DNA of 41,944 nucleotides from Patescibacteria group bacterium (GTDB lineage: Bacteria; Patescibacteriota; Patescibacteriia; GCA-002772895), in contig JAHINX010000061.1 of assembly GCA_018895765.1 (NCBI GenBank), positions 1-41,944 of the forward strand, given 5' to 3'. Below are positions 2,720 through 30,773 of this stretch, in pieces. The translations under genes and the position numbers were made by a program. The notes beneath the pieces are model-generated. The model searched no databases. It was given only the letters and a program-made list of their open reading frames with translations, and was not told the origin of the DNA. Every line of letters begins with the position of its first letter. Position 1 is the first letter of the stretch.

Positions 2720-2742
2720 GGAAACTAATTACGAATATTTAT

Positions 2743-3408
2743 ATGAGAAAAGCAAAAATCGCCGTGATTATACCGGCGTTTAACGAAGAAGAAACAATTG
2801 CAGGTGTGGTGGCGGCGGCAAGCGCGAGTGAATTGGTAAGTGAGGTTATTGTGGTTTCTGATGGTTCAGCCGATAAAACCGCCCGGTTAGCAAAAAAAAA
2901 TGGCGCAACTCAAATTTTTAATTTGCCAATAAAAAAAGGAAAGGGCGCCGCAATGCTTCACGGGCTCACTCATACGGATGCAGAAATAATCGTTTTTTTG
3001 GATGCGGATTTAAAGGGGTTTCGAGCGGAACACTTAAAGCGTTTGATAGAGCCGGTTTTTCGCGGTGAGTTAGTAATGAGTGTAGGGATTAGAGATCGTG
3101 GAAAGATAATGGAAAAAATCGGTCCATATCTTCCTCTTATCGGAGGAGAAAGAGCTATGCAGAGATTTGTAATAGAGAACATCCCGGACAAATATTTAAA
3201 GGGATTTATGATTGAGTCAGCGCTGAATTATTATTGCAGGTCCAGAGAGCTTCCCTATGGGACTGTTTTTTTGCCGGGCGTAAAAATAAGACGGAAGATG
3301 CAGAAAGTTGGGGTCTTGAAAGGGCTTTTGCAATATGTTAAGATGATATATCAAATTATAAAGGCAATGATATTGGTCAGATTGGCGAAAATGAGAGGAA
3401 GGTTTTAA
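2743..3408 (+). CDS. family 2 glycosyltransferase
   Basis: N-terminus KIAVIIPAFNEEETI...VVSDGSADKT...FLDADL is typical of the GT-A/GT2 fold. 221 aa. Confidence 0.75.
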   Translation: MRKAKIAVIIPAFNEEETIAGVVAAASASELVSEVIVVSDGSADKTARLAKKNGATQIFNLPIKKGKGAAMLHGLTHTDAEIIVFLDADLKGFRAEHLKRLIEPVFRGELVMSVGIRDRGKIMEKIGPYLPLIGGERAMQRFVIENIPDKYLKGFMIESALNYYCRSRELPYGTVFLPGVKIRRKMQKVGVLKGLLQYVKMIYQIIKAMILVRLAKMRGRF

Positions 3409-3530
3409 AGAAATTATCAATTATCAACGTTCAATTATCAATGAATTTCAAAGTTTAATTTTTTCAATGATCATTAAACGGTTTGCGATTGATTATTCAT
3501 TGATCATTGGTTATTGAATATTGAGTATTT

Positions 3531-4955
3531 ATGAAAGTTATTATCATGGGTCTGGGTTTATATGAAAAAGGAAGCGGCATTTCTGCCGCCAAGTTTTTTA
3601 TTGAAAAAGGCGACGAAGTTTTGATTACTGACTTAAAAGAGAGAAAGGAGTTGCTGCGTCAGATAAAAGAATTGGAAAAATTTTGCAAGAATCATAATAA
3701 AAAAATGCCCATACTTCATCTTGGTGGACATAAAGAAGATGATTTTAAAAGTGTAGATATTGTGATGCGGAATCCCGGCGTGCCAAAGGATTCGCTTTTT
3801 TTAAAAATCGCGCGAAAAGCCGGAGCGCAAATAGAAACCGATGTTACTATTTTTATGAAAAATTGCCACGCGATGGTTATTGGCGTAACAGGCACCCGTG
3901 GAAAAAGCACCACAGCATCTTTGATCTATGAAATATTGAAAAAATCCCCCCTAACCCCCCTTTGCAAAAGGGGGGAGAAAGGGGGAATTTGGCTTGGCGG
4001 AAATATAAAAATTTCTCCGCTTTCGTTTATAGAAAAAGTTAAGCCAAGCGATATTGTTGTTTTGGAATTTTCAAGCTGGATGCTGGAAAACTTTTCTGAA
4101 TATAAAATTGCCCCGCATATTGCTGTTATCACAAATATTTATCCCGACCATTTAAATACTTACAAAAATATGGCAGAATATATTTCTGCCAAGAAAAATA
4201 TTTTTCAATATCAAAAGGCAGGAGATTATTTAGTTTTAAACGGAGAGAATAGGGAAACGAAAAAATGGAAAGGCTATGGAAAAACAATTTATTTTTATAA
4301 AGAAAATATTAAAAAGTTTTATAAATTGCCCATTAAATTGCAGGGTGAGCATAATTTAGAAAATATTAGCGCGGCATATGCAGTGGTAAAAATTATGAAG
4401 GTGCCAGTAGCAAAGATTGAAAAAGTTTTGAAAAAATTTAACGGCCTCTCCGATAGACAGGAGATAATCGCGCAAAATAAGGGGATAACTTTTGTTAATG
4501 ATACAACAGCTACAACGCCGGACGGAACAATCGCGGCTCTCCGTAGATTTGGCGCGAACCAAGAAATCAAGAAAACAAGAAAACAAAAAAACAAGAAAAC
4601 AAGAAAGCAAGAAAGCAAAAAAATCATCCTAATCTGTGGTGGAAGCGACAAGGGGCTAGACTATAAACAATTTGCAAAAGAAGCAAAAAAATATTGCAAA
4701 GCAGTAATATTTTTTCCGGGAACGGCGACGGAAAAAATAAATTATAAATTATCAATTATCAATTATCAATTAATTATTATGGCGAAAGACATGAACAGTG
4801 CGGTAAAAAAGGCAAGACAACAGGCCATTAGAGGAGATATTATATTATTGTCTCCAGCTGCTGCCAGTTTCGGTTTGTTTAAAAATGAATTTGACAGAGG
4901 AGAGGAATTTAAGAAAGTAGTAACACAGGTAACACAGAAAGAACAGCACAGATAA
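3531..4955 (+). CDS. murD: UDP-N-acetylmuramoylalanine--D-glutamate ligase
   Basis: GVTGTRGKSTT P-loop and C-terminal LLSPAAASFGLFKNEFDRGEEF (MurD signature). Carries three repeat-derived in-frame inserts (see findings). Confidence 0.85.
   Translation: MKVIIMGLGLYEKGSGISAAKFFIEKGDEVLITDLKERKELLRQIKELEKFCKNHNKKMPILHLGGHKEDDFKSVDIVMRNPGVPKDSLFLKIARKAGAQIETDVTIFMKNCHAMVIGVTGTRGKSTTASLIYEILKKSPLTPLCKRGEKGGIWLGGNIKISPLSFIEKVKPSDIVVLEFSSWMLENFSEYKIAPHIAVITNIYPDHLNTYKNMAEYISAKKNIFQYQKAGDYLVLNGENRETKKWKGYGKTIYFYKENIKKFYKLPIKLQGEHNLENISAAYAVVKIMKVPVAKIEKVLKKFNGLSDRQEIIAQNKGITFVNDTTATTPDGTIAALRRFGANQEIKKTRKQKNKKTRKQESKKIILICGGSDKGLDYKQFAKEAKKYCKAVIFFPGTATEKINYKLSIINYQLIIMAKDMNSAVKKARQQAIRGDIILLSPAAASFGLFKNEFDRGEEFKKVVTQVTQKEQHR
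3941..3990 (-). repeat. G-rich hairpin element, family A, inverted copy inside murD
   Basis: aaaaatcccccctaacccccctttgcaaaaggggggagaaagggggaattt is the reverse complement of the family seen at 17213-17310, 19410-19455 and 35907-35953. Translated in frame as SPLTPLCKRGEKGGI. Confidence 0.7.
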
Positions 4956-17646: not shown

Positions 17647-18195
17647 ATGAAAAAATTCAAAAAAATTATATTATTGGTTTTAATTTTTATCGCCGGTTTT
17701 GGAATCGGCAATGCGGTGAAATATTATTTGGATATGTGGCGCGCCGATATGAGCGTGCAAACATTTTTAAACGCCATTGAAGCGCCGTATAAAAATGATA
17801 ACTATGGCGGAGCAACGCCGGAAGAAACATTTGATATGTATCTCACGGCTTTGAAGAAAGGCGATCTGGAATTGGCAAGTAAGTATTTTGTGATTGGGAA
17901 ACAAGAAAACAGATTAGCTATTTTATCCGATAAAAAGGATAATAATGAGTTGGATGATTATATAGCAAAATTGGAAAATGCAAAAAATACTTGGAAAATA
18001 AAAAAAGATGAATTTTATAATTGGGAAAGCAGGGCGGCGTATGAATATGAGACAGTGGTAGAAAAATTAAAATATATAGAAGTAGAGAATCCAGTTTCAA
18101 AACAATTAGAAAAAGTTGCAGTAAAACCAGGAAAATATAATGAGATAATACATTTTGAAAAAAATAATAACATTTGGAAACTCTATTTATTATGA
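17647..18195 (+). CDS. membrane-anchored hypothetical protein
   Basis: MKKFKKIILLVLIFIAGFGIG anchor. Its stop TGA overlaps the possible ATG of the nuclease ORF (ATGA at 18192-18195). Confidence 0.55.
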   Translation: MKKFKKIILLVLIFIAGFGIGNAVKYYLDMWRADMSVQTFLNAIEAPYKNDNYGGATPEETFDMYLTALKKGDLELASKYFVIGKQENRLAILSDKKDNNELDDYIAKLENAKNTWKIKKDEFYNWESRAAYEYETVVEKLKYIEVENPVSKQLEKVAVKPGKYNEIIHFEKNNNIWKLYLL

Positions 18196-21100
18196 TAAAA
18201 AAATCCTCTTTCTATAAAAAAGGAGGATTTTGGAATTTCAGATTTCAAATTTCAGATTTTAGATTTAATCTGATTAAATTATTTATACCGGTTATTTTGA
18301 TTGCCGGTTTTTTTGTCCCCTATTTTTCTTTTGCTTGGGACAGCCATTTTACCCATCGCGCCTTAACTTATGAAGCGGGAGAATTTTTTAATTATTTTAA
18401 TGATAGCCAACTAAGTGAAGAAGAAATTAATTGGCTGATGCAAGGAGCGCAAGAAGAAGATACTCCTCCGCGCTGGATAAACCATTTTTACAATCCAATA
18501 ACAGGCGAGGGTTGGACAGGCGATAAGCTGGGAGAAAACTCCCCAGGGCTTGTAAAATTTTTAAGCGGATTTTTTCTTTCTTCAAGAACTGCGCTTTCTG
18601 CAAAAAACTGGGCAAAAAACCGTTCCGCCCAAGCTGACTATTCATTATATAAAGGCGACCAAACCTGGCAAAAAGCGATTGATGCCTATTTGGAAGGGGA
18701 TAGAGAATCCGCTTTTGTTGCTTTGGGCCATATTCTTCATCTATTGGAAGATATGACGGTGCCGGACCATACGCGCGGAGACACTCATGCCGGCATTGTT
18801 GGCGACAAAGGAAGCCCCTTGGAAAATTGGGCAAAAGAATATAACAAAGACAAAATTGGCAAATTACAAACAGCAGAGGAATTATATAAGTCAGGCCAGA
18901 AGCCAAAAGATTTTTCAATTTTGGAAAATTATTTTGATTGGAATGCAAAATACAGTAGTGAAAATTTTTTTAGTGAGGATACAATAAATGAAAACTTAAT
19001 AGCTGTTCCAGAGTTAATTATTGGAGAAAATCAGCAAATTTACGGTTATATTAATAATTATCCCGTTTATACGGTAAAAGATAATAAAGAAACTATCAAT
19101 GATCCCCAAATCCTCACCGCTTATTGGCAGCGCCTCTCAAAGCAGGCAGTCATCTCCAGCGCCGGAGTAATAAATCTTTTTTTCAAAGAGGCCGAACGCC
19201 AATCAAAACTTCCGCAAAAAATGACAAAAAAGAGCAATACTACAACAAACACAATTTGGTCGCCATTTGGGGAGCTTACAAAATTATACAATACAGCAGT
19301 TCAGTTCGCGCAAGGTTTTTTCCCGCAAAGCACAAAAGCCGATGAATCGGTAAATGATGAGATTGTCACGTCGCAAGCTAATAGTGGTGACGAACGACTA
19401 TCAGAGCAAGCTTCTCCCCCTTCGGAGAAGGGGGATTTAGGGGGATTTAATAATAACCAATCAACAATAATCAATCAGCAATCAATAATTCCTGACCCGA
19501 CTCCCGCAAGCGAATCAATAACAGAGCCGGAAACAAATTTCTACGTCAGCCAGGTAATAGACGGCGATACGATTACGTTGAATAGCGGAGAAGATGTCCG
19601 TCTAATTGGTATGGATACGCCAGAACGCGGAGAAGAGTGTTTTGAAGAAGCAAAGCAGAAAATGGAATCAATGGTATTGGGCAAGAATATCCGTTTAGAA
19701 AAAGATACAAGTGAAACCGACAAATATAATCGGTTGTTACGTTATATTTATATAGACGGCGTGTTGGTAAATGCCGAGATGCTAAAAGAGGGATATGCGC
19801 ATCTTATGATGATACGGCCGGATACGAAATATTACAGCGCTTTCAAGTCATACGAAGAAGAAGCGAAATTTTTTGAACGCGGATGTTTATTTCAAAAGGA
19901 AGGCGTCGGTGGAGCCGATCCAATAGATGAAACGCCGGTATACACGGGCTGGTCATCAGCCGGCGGGAGTTCTAAGCCGGCGCCTCAAGCGCCAAAGGAA
20001 GAAACGCCGACTTCAACTCCGGAAACCGCCACCAGCACGTTGGAAGTAATTTTGGAAGATATAACTTCAACCTCAACTCCGCAAACTTCAACCTCAACTC
20101 CGCAAACTTCAACCTCAACTCCGGAAACTTCAACCTCAACTCCGGAAACCGCCACCAGCACGTTGGAAATCCCCGAAATTTTGCCAAATATTATTATAAA
20201 TGAAATACAGATTAGCGGAGGTCCGGGTGACACCGATAATGAATTTATAGAATTATATAATAATTCATCTGGCGCAGTTGATATTACTGATTGGAAATTA
20301 TTTAAAAAAACAGAAACGGTGCTGAGTTATAACCCTGATAAACAGCCTCCTGCGGAATATAATCTTGTTTCAAAATTCCCCACGGGCTCAACAATTCCAG
20401 CGAATTCGTATTTTCTTATTGTCCCCAAAAATGCCATTGGTAAACATGCGGATACGAATTATACCAACGGAAGCAATTTTGCCACGAGCGACGATACTCT
20501 TATTATAAGAGATGCGGACGGAAATATTATTGATAAAGTCGGTTTTGGCCTTGCGAATGACTATGAAGTACAACAAACGTATAATCCGCTGGACGGCCAA
20601 AGCATAAGCCGCACAAATTTTATCGACACGAATAATAATTTTAATGATTTTACGGTTTCCAGTTCAACGCCACAAGGGACAAGTAGCACTATGGCAATTG
20701 CGCCAGAACCAGAGCCGGAACCGGTTATTCCACCTGTCGTACCGGAACCGTCGGCGCCAACAATAGCTTGCACTACCTTTACTTACGGTACTCATAACAA
20801 AGAGGAAGGAGAAGCAGACAAAATCGCCGCCGAACCATTTCCGGATTTTTCAAATACATTAACTGTTACATTGGAAGCAGGGAAGACCTACTACACCGAC
20901 GATACAATATCCATTCCTAATAATAGAAAGTTAATAATAGAAGAAGGTGTGGTGTTAAAATTTGGAAGATGGCGCTGGGGAGGATGGATGAACTTTCCAA
21001 TCAGTTTGCGCATTTTAGGAGACCTGGAAGTAAATGGCACTGCTTCAAACCCGGTTATTTTTACAACTTTCCGCGATGACGCGCACGGCGTGGCGATTGA

Positions 21101-21704
21101 TATTTCCGGTTCCGAGCCCGCGCCTGGCGATTGGGGCTCTATACAGATAGAAAGTCCTAATGGTAAAGATATAAAAATTCAGCACGCCAAAATTTATTAT
21201 GCCGGCGGAGCGGCGAGTGCCGCCAATTCTTCCGGTGGCGCAATATTTGTGAATTTTTCGGACGCGGACATAGAGATTTCCGATATAGAAGTTAGCCACA
21301 GCCAGTCAGGCATCTATTCGCGCCTATTCCCGGGCACCCAGCCGAATATTTTAAATAGTAATTTTGAATATAATGCGCTCTGGGGCATATCTGCCCAAGA
21401 AGATAGCGCTATCCGTATAATCGGAAATACATTCCAGTGCAACGGCTTAACCGGCAATTCCGGTACAACCGGTGGAGTGAATGTTGTGGGTAATCCGGAA
21501 AATATTGTGATAGAAAATAATGATTTCATCAATAATAAAATCGGGTTGAATTTTTATAACGATAATCCGGACATAGAATTAAATGCGCAAAATAATTATT
21601 GGGGTGCAGAGTCCGGTCCGTGGCACGAAACAAAAAACCCCGCCGGAGCAGGGGATATAATACAGGGAAATGTAGATTTTAATCCGTGGACAGAAATAAA
21701 ATAG
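18192..21704 (+). CDS. secreted multi-domain nuclease: Zn-dependent PLC/P1-nuclease-like domain, SNase (thermonuclease) domain, TS-rich linker, lamin-tail domain, parallel beta-helix repeats
   Basis: Signal peptide ending FSFA, then mature WDSHFTHRAL and HILHLLEDMTVPDH (PLC/P1 fold). DGDTITL...RLIGMDTPE...YNRLLRY (SNase). IINEIQISG...NEFIELYN (LTD). PbH1-like repeats at the C-terminus. The exact start is uncertain (see findings). Confidence 0.75.
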   Translation: MIKKSSFYKKGGFWNFRFQISDFRFNLIKLFIPVILIAGFFVPYFSFAWDSHFTHRALTYEAGEFFNYFNDSQLSEEEINWLMQGAQEEDTPPRWINHFYNPITGEGWTGDKLGENSPGLVKFLSGFFLSSRTALSAKNWAKNRSAQADYSLYKGDQTWQKAIDAYLEGDRESAFVALGHILHLLEDMTVPDHTRGDTHAGIVGDKGSPLENWAKEYNKDKIGKLQTAEELYKSGQKPKDFSILENYFDWNAKYSSENFFSEDTINENLIAVPELIIGENQQIYGYINNYPVYTVKDNKETINDPQILTAYWQRLSKQAVISSAGVINLFFKEAERQSKLPQKMTKKSNTTTNTIWSPFGELTKLYNTAVQFAQGFFPQSTKADESVNDEIVTSQANSGDERLSEQASPPSEKGDLGGFNNNQSTIINQQSIIPDPTPASESITEPETNFYVSQVIDGDTITLNSGEDVRLIGMDTPERGEECFEEAKQKMESMVLGKNIRLEKDTSETDKYNRLLRYIYIDGVLVNAEMLKEGYAHLMMIRPDTKYYSAFKSYEEEAKFFERGCLFQKEGVGGADPIDETPVYTGWSSAGGSSKPAPQAPKEETPTSTPETATSTLEVILEDITSTSTPQTSTSTPQTSTSTPETSTSTPETATSTLEIPEILPNIIINEIQISGGPGDTDNEFIELYNNSSGAVDITDWKLFKKTETVLSYNPDKQPPAEYNLVSKFPTGSTIPANSYFLIVPKNAIGKHADTNYTNGSNFATSDDTLIIRDADGNIIDKVGFGLANDYEVQQTYNPLDGQSISRTNFIDTNNNFNDFTVSSSTPQGTSSTMAIAPEPEPEPVIPPVVPEPSAPTIACTTFTYGTHNKEEGEADKIAAEPFPDFSNTLTVTLEAGKTYYTDDTISIPNNRKLIIEEGVVLKFGRWRWGGWMNFPISLRILGDLEVNGTASNPVIFTTFRDDAHGVAIDISGSEPAPGDWGSIQIESPNGKDIKIQHAKIYYAGGAASAANSSGGAIFVNFSDADIEISDIEVSHSQSGIYSRLFPGTQPNILNSNFEYNALWGISAQEDSAIRIIGNTFQCNGLTGNSGTTGGVNVVGNPENIVIENNDFINNKIGLNFYNDNPDIELNAQNNYWGAESGPWHETKNPAGAGDIIQGNVDFNPWTEIK
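19410..19455 (+). repeat. family A G-rich hairpin element inside the nuclease ORF, followed by caatcaa heptamers
   Basis: cttctcccccttcggagaagggggatttagggggatttaataat is translated as SPPSEKGDLGGFNNN. The following caatcaa caataat caatcag caatcaa is translated as QSTIINQQSII. Confidence 0.7.
20064..20147 (+). repeat. 4 x 21-bp coding tandem repeat (TSTSTPQ/E)
   Basis: acttcaacctcaactccgcaa x2 and ...ccggaa x2, flanked by a 33-bp direct repeat tcaactccggaaaccgccaccagcacgttggaa (20013-20045 and 20137-20169). Confidence 0.9.
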
Positions 21705-21742: not shown

Positions 21743-21867
21743 CACGTGTTTTTATTTTTTCTGGGGAGCAAAACGGAGCTAGGATGAACATACCAATGTA
21801 TGTTCATCGCTCTAAACAAAAAAAGACCACCCGATTGATTGGGTGGTTTTGTTTTGGGTGGTTTTGC

Positions 21868-22221
21868 CTATGGCATAAGATTTTTTGCTCGGGTTCTTAT
21901 TTTGCAGTTCGGGCAAGAGTCCGGCATCTCTGCGCTGTAAAGAATCATTTTGTATCCGCAATTAGCGCATTGAATTTCAGTTTCTAGTGGATCACTAAAG
22001 TTCCATATTGTCCGAGGCGGTCTCCCTGGCGCAGTAGTATTTTCCGCAATACTTCTTTCTGTATTTTTTGATTCAATTACAATCGGCGTTTTGTCTTTTG
22101 GCCACTTCCAGCTAATCGCTTCCATATGTTTTTTTAAAAAATCATTGTTTTCGCCCAAAAGATGAAGAGGGCAATTGGTGTTTCTAAATATCTCTACATC
22201 TTTGTCAGTGTACTTGCTCAT
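21868..22221 (-). CDS. zinc-ribbon protein, paralog 1 (hypothetical)
   Basis: 117 aa. SD AGGAGG. Promoter TTGACA(22297-22292)-17-TAAGAT(22274-22269). C-terminal CANC...CPNC. Terminator accaccc/gggtggt at 21815-21855. Confidence 0.7.
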   Translation of the reverse strand: MSKYTDKDVEIFRNTNCPLHLLGENNDFLKKHMEAISWKWPKDKTPIVIESKNTERSIAENTTAPGRPPRTIWNFSDPLETEIQCANCGYKMILYSAEMPDSCPNCKIRTRAKNLMP

Positions 22222-22338
22222 TTTCGTCCTCCTGCTTATCTTTCTAGCGAAAGATTTGTGTTTTGCTCATCTTAACATAATTTTTGGAGATTGTCAAGAA
22301 TAAAAAAACGCTATCTGGACGATAGCGATAGTTTGGTA

Positions 22339-22692
22339 TTAAGTTGTGATTGGTTTGTTTTTATCTGTTGGCAAATTGCAACAAGGGCAGGCATAAGGCG
22401 GGTTTCCTCTGGAATCTAACGAGGAAAAGATTTTGCAATTATTGCACATTATAATACCCATGGCTTTATTGGTGATGACCCAAGACGTAGAGAAAGAGTA
22501 TCTTTGCGGGACAGTATCCTCCTCTTCCGGTCGAGTATTTTCTTTTTCCGATTCAATGATAATGTTCGGCGGTTGCCAGTTAAGTTTTTTCATCCATTGT
22601 ACATACTCTTCATCATTTGAGCCGAGCAAATGCGCTGGACAGGCCTCGGGGTCGGCCTTAAAATCCTCGATGTCCTCTTTTGTGTATTCCAT
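22339..22692 (-). CDS. zinc-ribbon protein, paralog 2 (hypothetical)
   Basis: 117 aa counted from ATG 22692 (SD AAGGAGG 8 nt upstream). Shares YT.[KE]D[VI]E.F...CP.HLLG.N...IIES...C.NC...CP.C with paralog 1. Terminator cgctatc/gatagcg followed by T7. Confidence 0.7.
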   Translation of the reverse strand: MEYTKEDIEDFKADPEACPAHLLGSNDEEYVQWMKKLNWQPPNIIIESEKENTRPEEEDTVPQRYSFSTSWVITNKAMGIIMCNNCKIFSSLDSRGNPPYACPCCNLPTDKNKPITT

Positions 22693-22733
22693 TATCAAGA
22701 CCTCCTTTACTTAAAAAATAACATAAAAGCGAT

Positions 22734-22755
22734 ATTTTGTCAATGTTGACAAAAT
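22734..22755. promoter_or_regulatory. perfect 10-2-10 palindrome forming back-to-back -35 boxes of divergent promoters
   Basis: attttgtcaa-tg-ttgacaaaat. On the + strand: TTGACA(22746-22751)-17-TAGATT(22769-22774). On the - strand: TTGACA(22743-22738)-17-TATTTT(22720-22715). Confidence 0.65.
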
Positions 22756-22801
22756 ATAAAATTTGTGATAGATTGGGATATTGGCAGAAAAGGAGAGAAA
22801 G

Positions 22802-23023
22802 ATGCCAAAGCTCATTCCAAGAGAATATGTTCTAAGGGTTTGCCGGCCTGGTATGGAGAATGCTTGTTCGTATCTTATGTGCAGTTCCAAGGGTTTTGAA
22901 TGCGCAAAGGGTACGGAATTTGAAAAAAGAATAAATGCAAAAAGAAATGCGAATGTGATGAATGCTTTGTCGTCCAACTGTCCTGGTATTGATAGTTTAG
23001 ATAAAAAAGAAACTCTAAACTAA
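22802..23023 (+). CDS. small 4-Cys protein (hypothetical)
   Basis: 73 aa counted from ATG 22802 (SD AAAGGAGAG). Homologous to the C-terminal 50 aa of the downstream Nudix protein, with the pattern VC..C.[YF]L..SS.G..C.K.T...NC. Confidence 0.6.
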   Translation: MPKLIPREYVLRVCRPGMENACSYLMCSSKGFECAKGTEFEKRINAKRNANVMNALSSNCPGIDSLDKKETLN

Positions 23024-23034
23024 GGAGAGAAGAG

Positions 23035-23715
23035 ATGGCAAAAGACCCGACCGTGACACATAATAAATCCGGCGAACAGGTTCATCATTCTGTCGGAGCT
23101 ATTATCAAAAATCGCGAAGGAAAATACCTTCTTATTGATAGAAAAAATCCGCCCCATGGCTTTGCTTGCATTGCCGGCCACATAGACGAAAGCGAAACGC
23201 ATATTGAAGCGATTGAGAGAGAAGTCTATGAAGAATCCGGTTTCAAGTCAAAACATCAGAGATTAGTGGAAGAAAAAGAAATCGCCAACAATGTCTGCAA
23301 GAGTGGTATAAAAATACATTTTTGGTATTTGTTTGAATGCGAATGTAATGGCACACCTTGGCTGAACGAAGATGAGGCGCACTCTATTGCCTGGTATTCG
23401 CAAGAAGAAGTCCAGATTCTAGCAGACGAGGGCAAACTGGAGCCGGTTTGGAATTTTTGGCTAAAGCGTCACAATGTTATCATTGACAGGGACAAGGTAA
23501 GGGAAATAACAGAAGATCGCGAAGAAGCAAGTTTTAGAACAGGTCTTCCGGCTGACAAACGAAAAGGCGTCTGCCAGGAAGATAATCCGGAAAAGCGCTG
23601 TGATTTTTTAATTCTTTCATCCGAAGGATGGGTATGTGAAAAATCCACAGATCTTGGCGAGGCAATAAAAGAATATTTTAAAGATAAGGGCAAAGAGCTC
23701 CAAGATAATTGCTAA
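23035..23715 (+). CDS. Nudix hydrolase fused to a C-terminal 4-Cys module
   Basis: Nudix box GHIDESETHIEAIEREVYEESGF. C-terminal GVCQEDNPEKRCDFLILSSEGWVCEKST...DNC. Its SD overlaps the stop codon of the upstream gene. Confidence 0.8.
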   Translation: MAKDPTVTHNKSGEQVHHSVGAIIKNREGKYLLIDRKNPPHGFACIAGHIDESETHIEAIEREVYEESGFKSKHQRLVEEKEIANNVCKSGIKIHFWYLFECECNGTPWLNEDEAHSIAWYSQEEVQILADEGKLEPVWNFWLKRHNVIIDRDKVREITEDREEASFRTGLPADKRKGVCQEDNPEKRCDFLILSSEGWVCEKSTDLGEAIKEYFKDKGKELQDNC

Positions 23716-23721
23716 TAATAG

Positions 23722-23748
23722 TCCGCGATAAAAATCGCGGATTTTTTT
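23722..23748 (+). terminator. rho-independent terminator
   Basis: tccgcgat-aaaa-atcgcgga followed by T7. Confidence 0.8.
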
Positions 23749-24010: not shown

Positions 24011-25999
24011 ATGAAATTTAAACTAAAATCAAAATATAAGCCGGCAGGCGACCAGCCAAAGGCGATTGAGGCTTTATTGGAGGGTTTAAAAAAGGGGATG
24101 CGCGCGCAAACACTTTTGGGAATTACCGGCTCCGGAAAAACTTTTACCATGGCTAATGTTATCGCAAAGATAAATCAGCCTACTCTTGTAATTGCGCACA
24201 ATAAAACTCTTGCCGCCCAGCTTTGTCAGGAGTTTCGCGAATTTTTTCCGGAAAATGCAGTGCATTATTTTGTCTCTTATTACGATTATTATCAGCCCGA
24301 AGCGTATATTCCGACAAGCGACACTTATATAGATAAGGAAGCAATGATAAATGATGAGATAGATCGTTTGCGCCATGCGGCCACTCAGTCGCTTCTCTCG
24401 CGCAGAGATGTAATAATAGTAGCTTCGGTTTCCTGTATCTATGGTCTTGGCGCGCCGGAAACATATGAAAAAATAAATCTGCATTTAAAAATCGGGGACG
24501 AATTTCTCCGTGATGATCTCATTCGGCGCCTTATTGATATGCAGTTTGAACGCACTAATTCCGATCTGACCCGCGGACATTTTCGTCTTCGCGGAGATGT
24601 TTTGGAAATAATGCCGATCAGTGAAGAAATCATCTATCGTATAGAGTTTAGCGCCTTAGGAAAAAACAATAGCGTGAATAATATTGTCCTTATTGACCCT
24701 GTCACGCGGAAAATAAAATCAAAAGAACAGAGCGCTTGGATTTTTCCGGCAAAGCATTTTATAACAAAAGAAAGCGAAAGAAAAAAATCCCTGAAAGAGA
24801 TAAATATAGAGCTTGAAAAACAATTAAAAATTTTTGAACGTGAAGGAAAGTTATTGGAAGCCGAACGTCTGGCGCGCCGGACAAAAAACGATATAGAAAT
24901 GATACGCGAGCTGGGGTATTGTCATGGGATAGAAAATTATTCTCGCCACTTATCCGGTAGAAAGGCGGGCGAATCGCCGGACACTCTTTTGAGTTATTTT
25001 CCAAAAACTTTTTTAACAATTATCGATGAGTCGCATGTCACTATTCCGCAAATTGGCGGGATGTATGAGGGTGACGCTTCCAGGAAACGGACGCTTATTG
25101 AATATGGCTTCCGTTTGCCGTCTGCCGCCGACAACCGTCCACTTAAGTTTCCGGAATTTTTGGCGCGGACAGGACAGATGATTTTTACTTCTGCCACCCC
25201 GAGTACTTATGAAAAAGAAAATAGTGAGCAGATAGTAGAGCAGATTATTCGCCCTACCGGACTCATAGACCCGAAGATTACAATTTGTCCTATAACTGAA
25301 ACAGAAAAAAATCTTTCGCAAGTTGATGACCTCTTGAAGCGCGTAAAAGAAAAAGTTGAAAAAGGGGAGCGCATATTGGTAACGACCCTTACAAAAAAAA
25401 TGGCTGAAGATTTATTTCAGTATTTGCATGAAGAGAAAATAAAAGCCAATTATATTCATAGTGATGTAAAAGCCCTGGATCGTATTAAAATTTTGACTGA
25501 TTTTCGCAGAGGAAAGTTTGATTGTTTAGTTGGAGTAAATCTTCTCCGCGAAGGGCTGGATTTGCCGGAAGTGACAATGGTGGCAATTTTGGATGCGGAT
25601 AAAGAAGGATTTTTGCGGAGCGAAACCGCGCTTATCCAAACAATTGGTCGGGCGGCAAGAAATGTTTTGGGCGAAGTTATTCTTTATGCCGACAATATGA
25701 CCGGTTCTATGCGCCGTGCGTTTGACGAAACAGAACGGCGCCGTTTTTTGCAACTGGCATATAATAAACGCCACAACATCACCCCGCAGACGATTATAAA
25801 GAATATCAAAAATATTTTGCCGGAAATAATGGAAACAGAAAAGCAAGAAGATGCGCCAATAAAGGGTAGAAATATAAAACAAATTATTTCTGAAAAAGAG
25901 CGCCAGATGAAAGATTCGGCGAGCCGGTTGGATTTTGAAACCGCGGCCATTCTGCGTGATGAGGTAAGGATTCTGAAAAAGAAATCCCGGAATCATTAA
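24011..25999 (+). CDS. uvrB: excinuclease ABC subunit B
   Basis: 662 aa. GITGSGKTFTMA, the YYDYYQPEAY beta-hairpin region, helicase motifs and a C-terminal UVR domain. Confidence 0.95.
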   Translation: MKFKLKSKYKPAGDQPKAIEALLEGLKKGMRAQTLLGITGSGKTFTMANVIAKINQPTLVIAHNKTLAAQLCQEFREFFPENAVHYFVSYYDYYQPEAYIPTSDTYIDKEAMINDEIDRLRHAATQSLLSRRDVIIVASVSCIYGLGAPETYEKINLHLKIGDEFLRDDLIRRLIDMQFERTNSDLTRGHFRLRGDVLEIMPISEEIIYRIEFSALGKNNSVNNIVLIDPVTRKIKSKEQSAWIFPAKHFITKESERKKSLKEINIELEKQLKIFEREGKLLEAERLARRTKNDIEMIRELGYCHGIENYSRHLSGRKAGESPDTLLSYFPKTFLTIIDESHVTIPQIGGMYEGDASRKRTLIEYGFRLPSAADNRPLKFPEFLARTGQMIFTSATPSTYEKENSEQIVEQIIRPTGLIDPKITICPITETEKNLSQVDDLLKRVKEKVEKGERILVTTLTKKMAEDLFQYLHEEKIKANYIHSDVKALDRIKILTDFRRGKFDCLVGVNLLREGLDLPEVTMVAILDADKEGFLRSETALIQTIGRAARNVLGEVILYADNMTGSMRRAFDETERRRFLQLAYNKRHNITPQTIIKNIKNILPEIMETEKQEDAPIKGRNIKQIISEKERQMKDSASRLDFETAAILRDEVRILKKKSRNH

Positions 26000-26151
26000 C
26001 ATTGGCGGAAATAATAGCTTTGGACTTCAAAATTTGAAGTCAGCCTACCCCGCGCCAAAGCCCGAACAGAATCTACTTTATCCTTTTGGATATCGGCTCG
26101 GAATCGCCTAACGGCTTACACCAACTAAAAATAATATCTTTCAAACGGCTT

Positions 26152-26227
26152 GGTGCGGGGTTAATAACTGCTGGTCAAATTTTGTTCGTCCTTTGGACTT
26201 CAAAATTTGAAGCCAGTTATTAAAAAA
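26152..26227 (-). repeat. family E long-hairpin element (inverted relative to 23841-23929)
   Basis: Its reverse complement is tttttaataactggcttcaaattttgaagtcc...caaaatttgaccagcagttattaaccccgcacc. A shortened third copy lies at 26015-26058. Confidence 0.7.
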
Positions 26228-26252
26228 AGCCCCGCTCAAATGAGTCGGGGCT
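26222..26252 (-). terminator. rho-independent terminator of the minus-strand GC-rich unit
   Basis: The minus strand reads agccccg-actcatttgag-cggggct followed by T7. Confidence 0.75.
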
Positions 26253-26301
26253 AGGTTGGTGGGAATAGGCAAGTGCCTATGCAGTGGGGTAGGCGCGGGG
26301 C

Positions 26302-26508
26302 CTAAGAGATGGGCAGAACCGCGGGGATGCAGGTGAATTGCTCGGCGAGGCCGGGCGAATCGTTTTTCCAGAACCGGTCGTGTAGGTTCTTGGCCTCAAT
26401 CCGCGCTTCCATAAGCGTGAAAGCGGTGATTCCGAGAACCTTGTTTGGCTCTCCGGGCCAACCACAGGCGCATCTTGCCGCCCAGACGATTTTTCGCTGA
26501 CAAGGCAT
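26302..26508 (-). CDS. hypothetical protein, GC-rich
   Basis: 68 aa. SD AAGGAG 7 nt upstream of the ATG. Last gene before terminator 26222-26252. Confidence 0.55.
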   Translation of the reverse strand: MPCQRKIVWAARCACGWPGEPNKVLGITAFTLMEARIEAKNLHDRFWKNDSPGLAEQFTCIPAVLPIS

Positions 26509-26528
26509 ACTTTTCTCCTTTATGGGTT

Positions 26529-26771
26529 TTATACAGCCATGATCCTTGCAAGCTCGCGTGCCTCGCGTTGCGCCTCGTGGAATTTACTCCTCATTTCTCC
26601 ATAGGTGAAGAAGCGTTCTGCCAGCGCGTCCGGTCCGTCATCCATTTGGCGGATGCTCATCGGCGCTTTTTCGCAAAGCCGGCGAAGGTCGTTCAGGCCG
26701 GAATCGGTGAGCTGAGCTTGGATCTCGTCTTCGATCATACTGTTGATCATTTTGATAGCCTTCAGGGTCAT
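26529..26771 (-). CDS. hypothetical protein, GC-rich
   Basis: 80 aa counted from ATG 26771 (MTLKAIKMINS...), preceded by AAAAGGAAAAG. Confidence 0.5.
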   Translation of the reverse strand: MTLKAIKMINSMIEDEIQAQLTDSGLNDLRRLCEKAPMSIRQMDDGPDALAERFFTYGEMRSKFHEAQREARELARIMAV

Positions 26772-26856
26772 CTTCTTTTCCTTTTCGGATTTTTGCGGCA
26801 AGTTAGGTATGCCGCAGAAATCCGCGGCAGGAGATTAGTCGCCGGTGTTTCTGACC

Positions 26857-27021
26857 TTACTTAAACTGGACAGTCAACGCCGGTTTGAGACAGAGAGTCG
26901 GATTTGGTCGCAGAACTGAGGCCGTTTTGTGCGCCTGCACTGCTTTGAGGCGCGCTTTCAGAACCGAGCTGGCCAAAAAAAAGTCTTTGAATGAGCAGTT
27001 TGCGCATTTGCACTCGAACAT
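26857..27021 (-). CDS. hypothetical small protein (54 aa)
   Basis: ORF absent from the track: MFECKCANCSFKDFFLASSVLKARLKAVQAHKTASVLRPNPTLCLKPALTVQFK. AAAGGAA lies upstream. It begins 27 nt after the tRNA-like sequence. Confidence 0.35.
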   Translation of the reverse strand: MFECKCANCSFKDFFLASSVLKARLKAVQAHKTASVLRPNPTLCLKPALTVQFK

Positions 27022-27048
27022 TTTTTTTCCTTTCTTTTCTGTGTTTTG

Positions 27049-27126
27049 TGGTACCCCCGACCGGATTCGAACTGGCGAATACTGGCGTTAAAGGCTAGTC
27101 TCTTAAGCAAACTAGAGTACGGGGTA
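27049..27126 (-). pseudogene. tRNA-like sequence with UUA at the anticodon position and an encoded CCA; degenerate
   Basis: TACCCCG-TA-CTCT-AGTTTGCTTA-AGAG-A-CTAGC-CTTTAAC-GCCAG-TATTC-GCCAG-TTCGAAT-CCGGT-CGGGGGT-A-CCA. There is an A-C mismatch in both the anticodon and T stems, the 5' acceptor strand is one C short, and the D-loop has no GG. Confidence 0.45.
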
Positions 27127-27586: not shown

Positions 27587-27685
27587 GGGGGGTCTATAAA
27601 AATACTGTAATTTTAGCTAAATATGATAGTAGTATCTTGCTTAAAGTACCGAAATAAGCTAAAATTAACCAACCTATACATTATT

Positions 27686-30340
27686 ATGCAGGATAAGATA
27701 ATTATAAAAGGCGCGCGTGAGCACAATCTGAAAAATATTAGTTTGGAGCTTCCGCGCAATAAGCTGATCGTTTTTACGGGATTATCCGGTTCGGGAAAAT
27801 CGAGCCTGGCTTTTGATACTATTTTTGCCGAAGGCCAGCGCAGGTATATTGAGTCGCTATCGGCATATGCCCGGCAGTTTTTGGGAAAGATGGATAAGCC
27901 GGATGTTGATGAAATAGAAGGTCTTGCGCCGGCAATTTCCATTGATCAAAAAGCCCATAGCGCAAACCCGCGTTCAACCGTGGCGACCATTACCGAAATT
28001 TATGATTATTTGCGCGTCCTCTTTGCTCGCGTGGGAGAACCGTTTTGTCCAGTTTGCAAAAAGAAAATTCAAAAAATGACTGTCCAGGAAATGGTGGATG
28101 TAACGCTAGAAAAATTGGAAAAAGAAAAAATAAAAAGCGAAGATAAACTAATTATTTTATCTCCAATTATTCGTGGCCGAAAAGGCGAATATTATCAGCT
28201 TCTTTATGATTTATATAATAAAGGTTTTAGTGAAGTCGCGGTTGACGGAAAAATGCATAAGCTTAGTGGAACGATAAAATTATCCCGTTATAAACGGCAC
28301 GATATTGATTTGGTTATCAGAAAATTAACCATCGCATATCCGATCCATGATAATAAAGTTTTGCAAAAAGAATTATCCGAAGCAATAGAAACTTCTTTAG
28401 AAGAGTCGGACGGTTTGGTAAAAATTATTATGCCGGGGACGTCTGTCATTGCGAGGAGTCCGTACTCGGAGGACGTGGCAATCTCACTGCAAAAAGATAG
28501 GATTGCTTCGTCGCAGAATTCTCCATTTTCCGTCAAGGCTACGAACGGCACGCAGAATGACGTTTTATTACTTTCGTCAAAATATTCTTGCCCGAATGAT
28601 AATTTTGCTTTTCCGGAAATAGAACCGCGTCTTTTTTCATTTAATAGTCCATACGGCGCTTGTGAATATTGTCATGGAATTGGAACGAAATTTATTTTTT
28701 CTGACGAAATATGCCCAAAGTGTCTTGGTAAGCGCCTAAAAATAGAAGCGCTTCATGTTTTAATCGGCGGAAAAAATATTAATGATGTTGTTAATATGTC
28801 GATAAGCGAAGCAGTAGAGTTTTTTAGTGGATTAAAATTATCCGCAAAACAAAAAGAAATTGCCGAAGCCGCGCTCCGCGAAATAAAAAACCGCCTTACT
28901 TTTATGCTTGATGTTGGGCTTAATTATCTAACATTGAATAGAAAGGCTGGCACCTTGTCTGGCGGAGAAGCACAAAGAATCCGGCTTGCTTCGCAAGTTG
29001 GCTCACGTCTTGTCGGCGCGCTCTATGTTCTTGATGAGCCGACAATCGGGCTTCACCAGCGTGACAACGAGCGTTTGCTTGAAACGTTATCTGAGCTCCG
29101 CGATATCGGCAATACGGTGATTGTAGTTGAGCATGATGAAGATACAATCTTAATGAGTGATTATATGGTTGATATAGGTCCTGGCGCCGGTAAAAACGGT
29201 GGAGAAATAGTTGCATCAGGCACGTTGCAGGAGGTTTTGAAAAATAAAAATTCTTTGACCGCAAAATATCTCCGCGGAGAATTAAAAGTGCCAATGCCCG
29301 AGACGCGCAGAAAAAATATTAAAGAAAAAATTGTAATTTCCGGCGCGACCGAGCATAATCTGAAAAATATAAAAATTGAAATTCCCTTGAAAAAATTTGT
29401 TTGTCTTACCGGCGTTTCCGGTTCCGGTAAATCAACGGTGATGAATGACATTTTATACCGCGCGGCTTCCAAAAAAATAAACCATTCAGGGGTTAGGCCG
29501 GGCGCATATAAAAAAATAGAAGGCCTCTCGCATATTGATCGCGTGATTGTTGTTGACCAGTCGGCAATTGGTAGAACTCCGCGTTCCAATCCGGCAACTT
29601 ATACCGGATGTTGGACACATGTCCGCGAACTTTTTTCCACTACGCCCGAAGCGCGGGCGCGTGGGTATAAAATCGGACGTTTCAGTTTTAACCGCCCGGG
29701 TGGAAGATGCGAACACTGCGAAGGTAATGGCACGATTGCTATTGAAATGCATTTTTTGCCGACAGTTTATGTAAAATGCGATGTTTGTAAGGGCAAGCGG
29801 TTTGACCGCGAAACATTGGAGATAAAATATAAAGGGAAGAATATTGCTGATATTTTGGATATGGAAATAGATGAAGCCGATGGATTTTTCAAGAATATTC
29901 CGCAGATATCCGACAAGCTGAAAGTTTTGCGCCAAGTCGGTTTGGGCTATTTGGAACTCGGCCAGGGCGCGCCGACCTTGTCTGGCGGAGAAGCGCAAAG
30001 AGTGAAATTGGCAAAAGAGCTTTCAAAATATTATTCTCTTCGTTTCCGTCAAGGCCTGTCGCGTTCGCTTTATCTTTTGGATGAGCCGACAGTCGGCCTC
30101 CATTATGACGATATAAAAAAGCTTGTCGCGGTTTTGCAAGAGCTTGTTTCCGCGGGAAATACAGTTCTAATTATTGAACATAATCTTGATATAATAAAAA
30201 ATGCGGATTATATTATTGACCTTGGTCCGGAGGGCGGGGATAAAGGTGGAGAGGTTATTGCAACTGGTACACCGGAAGAGGTGGCGCGGATGCCCAGATC
30301 ATATACGGGGCAATACTTGCGAAAAGTTTTGGGGGTTTAG
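27686..30340 (+). CDS. uvrA: excinuclease ABC subunit A
   Basis: The start is set at [18 protein letters not shown]. Two ABC modules ([26 protein letters not shown] x2) and zinc-finger Cys clusters. Confidence 0.95.
28445..28561 (+). mobile_element. family C MITE-like element, 117 bp, in frame inside uvrA
   Basis: gtcattgcgaggagtccgtactcggaggacgtggcaatctc...cgcagaatgac, with terminal inverted repeats. The first roughly 40 nt match 32027-32066. Translated as [39 protein letters not shown]. Confidence 0.75.
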
Positions 30341-30642: not shown

Positions 30643-30773
30643 GACTACCTCCTTATCCATAATATTAAGCGTAAATATATTTTATGTCAACCAAATTAGA
30701 AAAATATTCATAAAAATCCCCAATACTTTTCGCGAACGCGAAAAGTATTGGGGATTTAAATAAAATCAGGATT

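Follow-up and report, generated by a model that had tools for sequence, protein, structure and literature searches.

A Parcubacterial Nudix Protein Carries a Four-Cysteine Domain from a Mostly Phage-Borne Family and Shares an Operon with a Free Member of That Family

In the chromosome of an uncultured ultra-small bacterium of the Parcubacteria (candidate phyla radiation [CPR]), four genes lie between a nuclease gene and uvrB, and the question they raise is which of them belong together and what they do. The window that we analyzed is the whole 41,944-nucleotide contig JAHINX010000061.1 of assembly GCA_018895765.1. Two of the genes encode zinc-ribbon proteins (ZnR-A and ZnR-B), the third encodes a small protein with four cysteines (mini4C), and the fourth encodes a Nudix protein that ends in a similar four-cysteine module (Nudix-4C). 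An initial annotation of the sequence treated the four genes as a joint module with a layout suggestive of defense, counterdefense, or nucleotide signaling. We find instead that the conserved unit is the two-gene operon of mini4C and Nudix-4C and, beyond what the annotation proposed, that the module belongs to a large, mostly phage-borne family.

What connects the two proteins of the operon is the module itself. The annotation had described the C terminus of the Nudix protein as a repeat of the free module and had named missing statistical support as grounds for refutation; the support proved to be substantial. BLASTP aligns the free and fused modules with an E value of 9e-5. Their Smith-Waterman score is 57, whereas 5000 shuffles that preserved composition averaged 24 and never exceeded 51 (Gumbel p ~4e-5). 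When two free and four fused copies are aligned, C14, C22, G31, C34, K36, T38, and C60 (mini4C numbering) are invariant. Thus, C180, C189, G198, C201, K203, and D224-N225-C226 of the fused copy correspond to C14, C22, G31, C34, K36, and N59-C60 of mini4C. For an independent test, we used a family hidden Markov model (HMM) of ~105 members from which this clade was excluded, with Z set to 1e6. It finds both forms, the free copies at an E value of ~1e-21 and the fused copies at 1e-9 to 1e-12. The free and fused modules are thus homologous. They are not nearest relatives, since for the fused modules mini4C ranks only 69th to 95th of 110 family members. Recent tandem duplication of the adjacent mini4C gene is therefore ruled out as the origin of the fused module.

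The family to which both modules belong, termed Cys4 here, is defined by the pattern C-x7-8-C-x10-12-C-x22-28-C, with a glycine before the third cysteine, a lysine two residues after it, and [DN]-N-C at the fourth. Mini4C and the fused copy both have this pattern and match the family HMM. A HMMER search of 1.84 billion representative proteins (E ≤ 1e-3) recovered at least 375 clusters at 50% identity, and a word-index search for mini4C found only 2 extra relatives. Most members are free proteins of 60 to 90 amino acids (aa; ~70); in a minority, various unannotated domains are attached at one end or the other. The consensus, ..HV..VCK.GQG..CCRYL..G..GF.CAK.T....ID.RV..G.M.A.GDNC.G., has a modal cysteine spacing of C-x8-C-x11-C-x25-C and a GDNCxG motif, and it contains no CxxC knuckles. 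The four cysteine columns are conserved at 100, 100, 100, and 99%, the lysine (K36) is conserved at 99%, and in ~56% of members an extra cysteine adjoins the second one (CC). The members contain neither signal peptides nor membrane segments. Because cysteines conserved at 99 to 100% in cytoplasmic proteins suggest metal ligands, we infer that the module forms a cytoplasmic Cys4 metal site, for which Zn and Fe-S are both possible.

The annotation could assign none of the three small protein families to a named family, and our searches bear this out. Searches of the four cluster proteins against Pfam, NCBIfam, PADLOC, and PHROGs recognized the Nudix domain alone. Extending the Pfam and PHROGs searches to 110 Cys4 members gave nothing consistent, NCBIfam and PADLOC gave no match to the module protein of the window, and PDB sequence profiles of the module returned only noise. 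An AlphaFold2 (AF2) model of mini4C, built from a 110-sequence alignment, is compact and alpha/beta, with a mean predicted local distance difference test (pLDDT) score of 88 and a core above 94. Foldseek comparison of predicted models had been proposed as a check in the annotation; it placed Nudix-4C among Nudix structures, as described below, and found no match for mini4C (best E values of 3.7 in PDB and 2.0 in BFVD). The Cys4 family is thus undescribed in the libraries searched (Pfam, PHROG, NCBIfam, and PADLOC), and its predicted fold has no match in PDB or BFVD. In the PDB profile searches, which covered the module, ZnR, and a recurrent fusion partner, we did not trust a match to peptide deformylase at an E value of 0.06, despite the deformylase genes that neighbor the module in two related phage contigs. 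Five family members (P0067, P0088, P0137, P0140, and P0148) carry, after the module, a common domain of ~100 aa (..LGFLCDGRLVGKRVHHEES.P..E..GTV...). It has no Pfam or PDB match and is a second undescribed domain.

The enzyme to which the module is attached can be described more fully. Pfam family PF00293 matches Nudix-4C with 60.1 bits against a cutoff of 21.1, and the Nudix box (GX5EX7REUXEEXGU) is complete, reading G48-HIDES-E54-THIEAIE-R62-E63-V-Y-E66-E67-S-G69-F, with its key positions invariant across 19 relatives. Foldseek aligned the AF2 model with many Nudix structures at a probability of 1.00 and a target-normalized template modeling score of up to 0.8, all of them generic small Nudix matches with the alpha/beta/alpha fold. 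From these features, Nudix-4C is probably an active single-domain pyrophosphohydrolase. In the model, pLDDT is 85 to 96 in the Nudix core, 43 to 65 in the linker, and 65 to 74 in the module, a profile consistent with a tethered independent domain. The best NCBIfam match is MutT, far under the cutoff: models NF008044 and TIGR00586 score 29.9 and 22.8 bits against cutoffs of 148 and 97.9. The NudC model NF001299 scores 16.7 bits against 158, and the SQPWPFP motif is absent from the Nudix-4C sequence. His17, His49, Cys88, His95, Asn86, and Trp97 are also invariant across 19 clade members; His49 lies inside the Nudix box, and His17, Cys88, and His95 lie outside its canonical positions. A metal or substrate site particular to this clade could be marked by His17, His49, Cys88, and His95.

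Relatives of the enzyme suggest the setting in which it works. Only four protein clusters of Nudix proteins bear the module (P0004 to P0007; 48 to 100% identical). Some 20 close relatives, 45 to 52% identical over the Nudix domain, are 141 to 148 aa long and end before it. One of these short relatives is encoded with MazG (locus L008), another lies within a five-gene Nudix array that also includes a YfbR-like HD nucleotidase (L010), and a third, between two tRNA synthetase genes, adjoins what by eye is a nucleoside deoxyribosyltransferase-like gene (L049). Such neighbors point to a nucleotide house-cleaning setting. None of these three loci contains a module open reading frame (ORF). Queried with the fused Nudix, the GTDB genomes returned a single match, an archaeal short Nudix.

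Mini4C and Nudix-4C are separated by 11 nucleotides, the ribosome-binding site of Nudix-4C overlaps the mini4C stop codon, and a single terminator follows both genes. Because the gap is this short and no terminator lies within it, we conclude that the two genes form one operon. The cluster therefore comprises three transcription units, not four. The annotation had given each unit its own promoter, Shine-Dalgarno sequence, and terminator; such sites are indeed found, with one promoter and one terminator shared by mini4C and Nudix-4C.

The same pair recurs in relatives. In the closest of these (L001 to L006, including Parcubacteria CG10 GCA_002772895.1), the nuclease gene is followed, in order, by genes for an unrelated coiled-coil protein (minus strand) and a ZnR-B ortholog (minus strand), then by mini4C (plus strand), Nudix-4C (plus strand), and uvrB. 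A more distant relative (L035), whose mini4C is 48% identical, keeps the pair, and its divergent gene encodes a coiled-coil membrane protein rather than a ZnR protein. The free and fused modules thus occur together in three lineages (the window, L001 to L006, and L035), and in a fourth the fusion occurs by itself. The fusion itself is confined to a narrow Parcubacteria clade. In L041, a locus of that fourth lineage, inspection by eye of positions 700 to 4700 (metagenome contig Ga0209541_10023241) points to genes near the fused Nudix that resemble those for an ADP-ribosylglycohydrolase (365 aa), a second Nudix protein with an NrtR-type C terminus (226 aa), a CN-hydrolase, and an NPPY DNA methyltransferase.

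The zinc-ribbon genes are not part of this unit. ZnR-A and ZnR-B are paralogs, as the annotation recognized: they are 32% identical over 112 aa (E = 2e-12) and have in common a CxxC...CPxC ribbon and, near the N terminus, the motif YT.[KE]D[VI]E.F...CP.HLLG; the shared residues include C18, P19, H21, LLG, and all four ribbon cysteines. The ribbons read CANC-x14-CPNC in ZnR-A and CNNC-x15-CPCC in ZnR-B. The rubredoxin-like family PF21349 matches ZnR-A with 23 bits, below its cutoff of 26.5, and ZnR-B has no such match. The N-terminal domain of ~50 aa has no match in the family libraries, and a ZnR profile run against PDB sequences gave only noise. Among 5.8 billion proteins, the family has only three members, including 1 extra relative from a word-index search, and scans of IMG/VR and JGI metagenomes yielded none. 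The second copy, ZnR-A, is found in this genome only, and the sole ortholog of ZnR-B is in the CG10-type Parcubacteria relatives (P0030, 65% identity). We conclude that the ZnR genes are clade-specific orphan additions. The four genes taken together, which the annotation had suggested surveying in other genomes as a neighborhood, therefore do not form a conserved unit.

Our explanation for the operon, which we hold tentatively and would give slightly under an even chance, is that it encodes a house-cleaning or salvage Nudix enzyme with a recruited, metal-stabilized Cys4 domain for interaction or regulation, modulated by the cotranslated free copy. The sequences show that a Nudix protein from a clade whose module-less members have nucleotide-pool and salvage neighbors has gained, in this narrow lineage only, a C-terminal Cys4 domain of ~55 aa on a flexible linker; a second, divergent Cys4 member, mini4C, is encoded just upstream on the same mRNA. 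The module, presumably stabilized by Zn or Fe-S, may serve in interaction, targeting, or regulation and not in catalysis. The free copy could then tune the fused enzyme, either because it pairs with the fused module or because the two compete for one partner, and the enzyme would clean or recycle nucleotides or nucleotide derivatives. Such a recycling role would suit a nucleotide-salvaging organism, and in the chromosome the operon is placed between the gene for a probably secreted nuclease and uvrB.

Several observations weigh against this explanation. The lineage of cluster P0006 (L007 and L041) has the fused Nudix with no free module upstream, and the gene-neighborhood arguments are drawn from a handful of loci. 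In L041, the neighboring genes hint at ADP-ribose or NAD chemistry rather than at deoxynucleoside triphosphate sanitation. Every NCBIfam equivalog score lies far below its cutoff, so no substrate can be transferred to Nudix-4C. Homotypic pairing of the free and fused modules is only a guess, because the two are not nearest relatives, and the case for metal binding is a case from residue conservation.

The wider distribution of the module bears on whether the cluster could instead act in defense. The Cys4 family is mostly phage borne. One copy lies in the 462-kb uncultured phage LR756500.1, and an IMG/VR search with a degenerate DNA pattern, representing one codon variant of CCRYL...GDNC, found 20 contigs of 11 to 183 kb, of which 19 contain true module ORFs. 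Rows of small unannotated same-strand ORFs surround the module in a 91-kb contig (L012), and elsewhere it sits in a tightly packed run of small ORFs (L060); in L013, HNH endonuclease genes and a Tad6-family gene lie close to it. Large neighboring ORFs match PHROGs for primase, DnaB-like helicase, DNA helicase, DNA polymerase, and RNA ligase (L017, L018, L021, and L029), and in two related contigs a peptide deformylase with a SEC-C motif adjoins the module. These contexts look like phage early or replication regions. In three loci the module lies within ~230 nucleotides of a DNA primase gene in a replication block (L017, 4928 to 6286; L029, 1850 to 3337; L034, 1860 to 3218); L017 and L034 are near identical, so this adjacency represents two lineages. 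Across the 19 viral loci, the module has no recurrent neighbor, no ZnR homolog, and no linked Nudix gene.

If the cluster acted in defense or counterdefense, the Nudix enzyme might destroy a nucleotide-derived immune signal or the products of NAD or ADP-ribose chemistry, with the Cys4 and ZnR proteins as sensors or partners. A phage-borne family would be in keeping with this role, since many antidefense proteins are carried by phages, as would the Tad6-family gene near the copy in L013. Phage NAD+ reconstitution pathways include Nudix enzymes. Gene content around the operon also varies between relatives, and L041 places the fused Nudix near genes that by eye are ADP-ribosylglycohydrolase-like and NrtR-type. 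The PADLOC candidate PDC-S07 does match the Nudix domain, weakly and generically (E = 1.3e-7, 29 bits), but beyond a 13-bit zinc-knuckle match to DruE, no PADLOC system model matches the small proteins, and mini4C and ZnR-B match nothing. Nor do the viral loci link the module to Nudix or ZnR genes or to any recurrent neighbor. The module-less Nudix relatives occur in housekeeping contexts, and the ZnR genes are not conserved partners. In addition, the operon lies within conserved chromosomal synteny from the nuclease gene to uvrB, and its G+C content is host-like: the cluster has ~40% G+C, equal to its flanks, a composition that also rules out a horizontally acquired island. Taken together, the evidence does not support the role in defense or signaling that the annotation had suggested, and we consider it unlikely.

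The Cys4 module could also act as a redox or iron switch. Its four cysteines would hold an Fe-S cluster, and loss of that cluster under oxidative stress would switch a MutT-like sanitizing activity, which would fit the proximity of uvrB and the MutT identity of the best, far-below-cutoff NCBIfam match. Ligands spread singly along the chain with no CxxC knuckles, as in the C-x8-C-x11-C-x25-C spacing, are unusual for zinc fingers, and over half of the members have the extra cysteine at the second site. Small Fe-S WhiB-like proteins in actinophages provide a precedent. The module nonetheless has no sequence or fold similarity to known Fe-S proteins, uvrB has its own promoter and its adjacency may be incidental, and Fe-S and Zn sites are indistinguishable in silico. 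An Fe-S switch is thus improbable in our estimation. A bolder interpretation starts from the family rather than from the operon: Cys4 would be a new metal-binding fold and a host-takeover or antidefense factor, widespread in phages and frequently encoded next to their replication genes, and the Nudix fusion would be a Rosetta-stone clue that the module recognizes a nucleotide-derived ligand or a nucleotide-handling protein and recruits or gates a pyrophosphohydrolase. We regard this as a long shot.

How the operon and its divergent neighbor are expressed raises a further alternative. Promoter-like and terminator sites were located by a consensus scan (Table 1). The annotation had noted a perfect palindrome that forms both -35 boxes of the divergent promoters and had proposed it as the site of a single dimeric regulator. 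The palindrome is perfect and overlaps both boxes; its extent is 12-2-12 (22732 to 22757) rather than the 10-2-10 (22734 to 22755) given there. Only 2 perfect palindromes with arms of at least 12 nucleotides occur in the window, compared with a mean of 0.06 per window in first-order Markov simulations. A small metal-dependent DNA-binding dimer, ZnR-B or mini4C, might occupy it and coregulate both promoters, and a small regulator encoded divergently is a classic layout. The arms are identical in L001 to L006, and L035 keeps 11 of 12 arm positions, its outer-arm change being mirrored in the other arm (ACAT...ATGT versus ATAT...ATAT), which mildly favors selection for symmetry.

The spacer tells against such a dimer. 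It is 2 nucleotides long in the window and in L035 but 5 nucleotides long in L001 to L006, a difference that rotates the half-sites by ~100 degrees relative to each other and argues against a rigid dimer. Moreover, L035 keeps the palindrome even though its divergent gene is not a ZnR gene; its left arm supplies the -35 box for the divergent promoter of that different gene (TTGACG-17-TAAATT, TG extension). TTGACA followed by an A-tract also occurs at other promoter-like sites in the window (14858, 27558, 32168, and 38911), so that TTGACAAAAT-like sequences are not particular to this site, and neither ZnR-B nor mini4C matches a DNA-binding family in Pfam or NCBIfam. Because the spacer varies among relatives, the palindrome is best read as two consensus promoters back to back, and control by a dedicated regulator seems very unlikely.

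Table 1. Coordinates of genes, protein domains, and predicted expression signals in and around the cluster
Feature	Position	Strand	Details
ZnR-A	21868-22221	(-)	117 aa
ZnR-B	22339-22692	(-)	117 aa with the ATG downstream of an AAGGAGG site as start; alternative in the ORF list, TTG start at 22698
mini4C	22802-23023	(+)	73 aa; free-standing Cys4 family member; C14, C22, C34, C60; K36
Nudix-4C	23035-23715	(+)	226 aa; Nudix domain plus C-terminal Cys4 module
Nudix domain	Nudix-4C residues 17-129 (~nt 23083-23421)	(+)	Intact Nudix box
Linker	Nudix-4C residues 146-175	(+)	Low confidence in AF2 model
C-terminal Cys4 module	Nudix-4C residues ~170-226 (nt 23542-23712)	(+)	
SNase+LTD protein	18174-21704	(+)	1176 aa; flanking gene
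uvrB	24011-25999		Flanking gene
ZnR-A promoter-like site	22269-22297	(-)	TTGACA-17-TAAGAT, TG extension
ZnR-B promoter-like site	22715-22743	(-)	TTGACA-17-TATTTT, TG extension
mini4C/Nudix-4C operon promoter-like site	22746-22774	(+)	TTGACA-17-TAGATT, TG extension
Perfect 12-2-12 palindrome	22732-22757	none	ATATTTTGTCAA tg TTGACAAAATAT; each arm consists of a -35 box and an A-tract
Bidirectional intrinsic-terminator hairpin	21823-21850	both	Ends nuclease gene (+) and ZnR-A (-); (-) terminator 21847-21826
Terminator-like hairpin after ZnR-B	22309-22327	(-)	
Intrinsic terminator, mini4C/Nudix-4C operon	23720-23743	(+)	

Other features of the window lie outside the cluster. The 1176-aa protein upstream of it contains TSTPETS-type tandem repeats, and SNase and LTD domains are present in its ortholog. 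The protein is probably a nuclease that is secreted or exposed at the surface, as would suit a CPR bacterium that scavenges nucleotides. The second perfect palindrome (30721 to 30750; CAATACTTTTCGCG aa CGCGAAAAGTATTG) lies between a 905-aa ORF (27623 to 30340), which synteny suggests is probably uvrA, and the gene that follows, where it might serve as terminator or operator.

Between uvrB and the tRNA genes, a stretch of ~1 kb (26000 to 27050) has a G+C content of 50 to 52%, compared with ~40% elsewhere, and relatives have a longer tRNA array at this position. It holds only small minus-strand ORFs, of 90 aa (26529 to 26801) and 68 aa (26302 to 26508). These ORFs have no Pfam match, and the stretch has no Rfam match. 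The stretch resembles what is left of a foreign element that had inserted next to a tRNA gene; a toxin-antitoxin pair encoded by the ORFs at 26300 to 26800 would be a guess that Pfam does not support, and we set it aside. Directly after tRNA-Lys(ttt), ARAGORN predicts a 78-nucleotide tRNA on the minus strand (27049 to 27126; Rfam tRNA, 37.9 bits) whose anticodon, TTA, would decode the stop codon UAA. A functional ochre suppressor would be odd here, since genes in the window end in TAA. In L001 to L004, the same position is occupied by tRNA-Gln(ttg), followed by Val, Glu, and Met tRNAs, and the TTA-anticodon tRNA does not closely match either tRNA-Gln.

Nothing is unusual about the Nudix enzyme, the zinc ribbons, or the divergent promoters, and the value of the locus lies in the accessory Cys4 domain. 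The Nudix fusion is the sole link between the Cys4 family and an enzyme of known chemistry, and the cotranscribed free copy is a second handle; together they offer an experimental entry into phage dark matter. Should the module turn out to target or sense in a metal-dependent way, annotation could be extended to many small phage ORFs, and CPR bacteria that depend on nucleotide salvage would have a new mode of Nudix regulation. If it is a plain structural zinc domain, the cluster would be a routine lineage-specific accessory operon.

Comparison with known systems places the parts of the cluster more precisely. Nudix-4C resembles MutT-type Nudix enzymes (NudG, 2rrk; Thermus thermophilus Ndx1, 1vc9; NudI, 3oga) in its complete box and its alpha/beta/alpha fold of ~140 aa. 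Its best sequence and fold matches are small nucleoside triphosphate or ApnA hydrolases, and its close relatives are encoded with MazG and HD nucleotidases. Unlike these single-domain enzymes, it carries a C-terminal Cys4 domain. The C termini of the ZnR proteins are like rubredoxin-like proteins and zinc ribbons (PF21349 and DUF7130) in having two CxxC knuckles 13 to 15 residues apart, but the ZnR-A score is below the gathering threshold, and the N-terminal domain of ~50 aa is without a counterpart.

Two further systems also contain four-cysteine sites. In NudC, an NADH pyrophosphatase and NAD-cap decapping enzyme, as in Nudix-4C, a Nudix domain is joined to a four-cysteine site, here a predicted metal site, and the Nudix part is weakly similar in sequence (5iw4 and 1vk6; E ~3e-7). 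The zinc motif of NudC is a CxxC-type ribbon N-terminal to the Nudix domain, and the SQPWPFPxS motif is specific to it; in Nudix-4C, by contrast, the module follows the Nudix domain, its cysteines are dispersed, its family is an independent one, and that motif is absent. The WhiB-like (Wbl) proteins, which are common among actinobacteria and actinophages, are small Fe-S proteins that have four cysteines and act by binding partner proteins. Their cysteine pattern, C-Xn-C-X2-C-X5-C, differs from that of Cys4, they occur in other taxa and show no sequence or fold similarity to it, and the Pfam Whib family matches 0 of the 110 members. In general character the two families are nevertheless alike: Cys4 members, like the 70- to 100-aa Wbl proteins, are small and cytoplasmic, have four invariant cysteines, and occur as free proteins both in phages and in cellular genomes.

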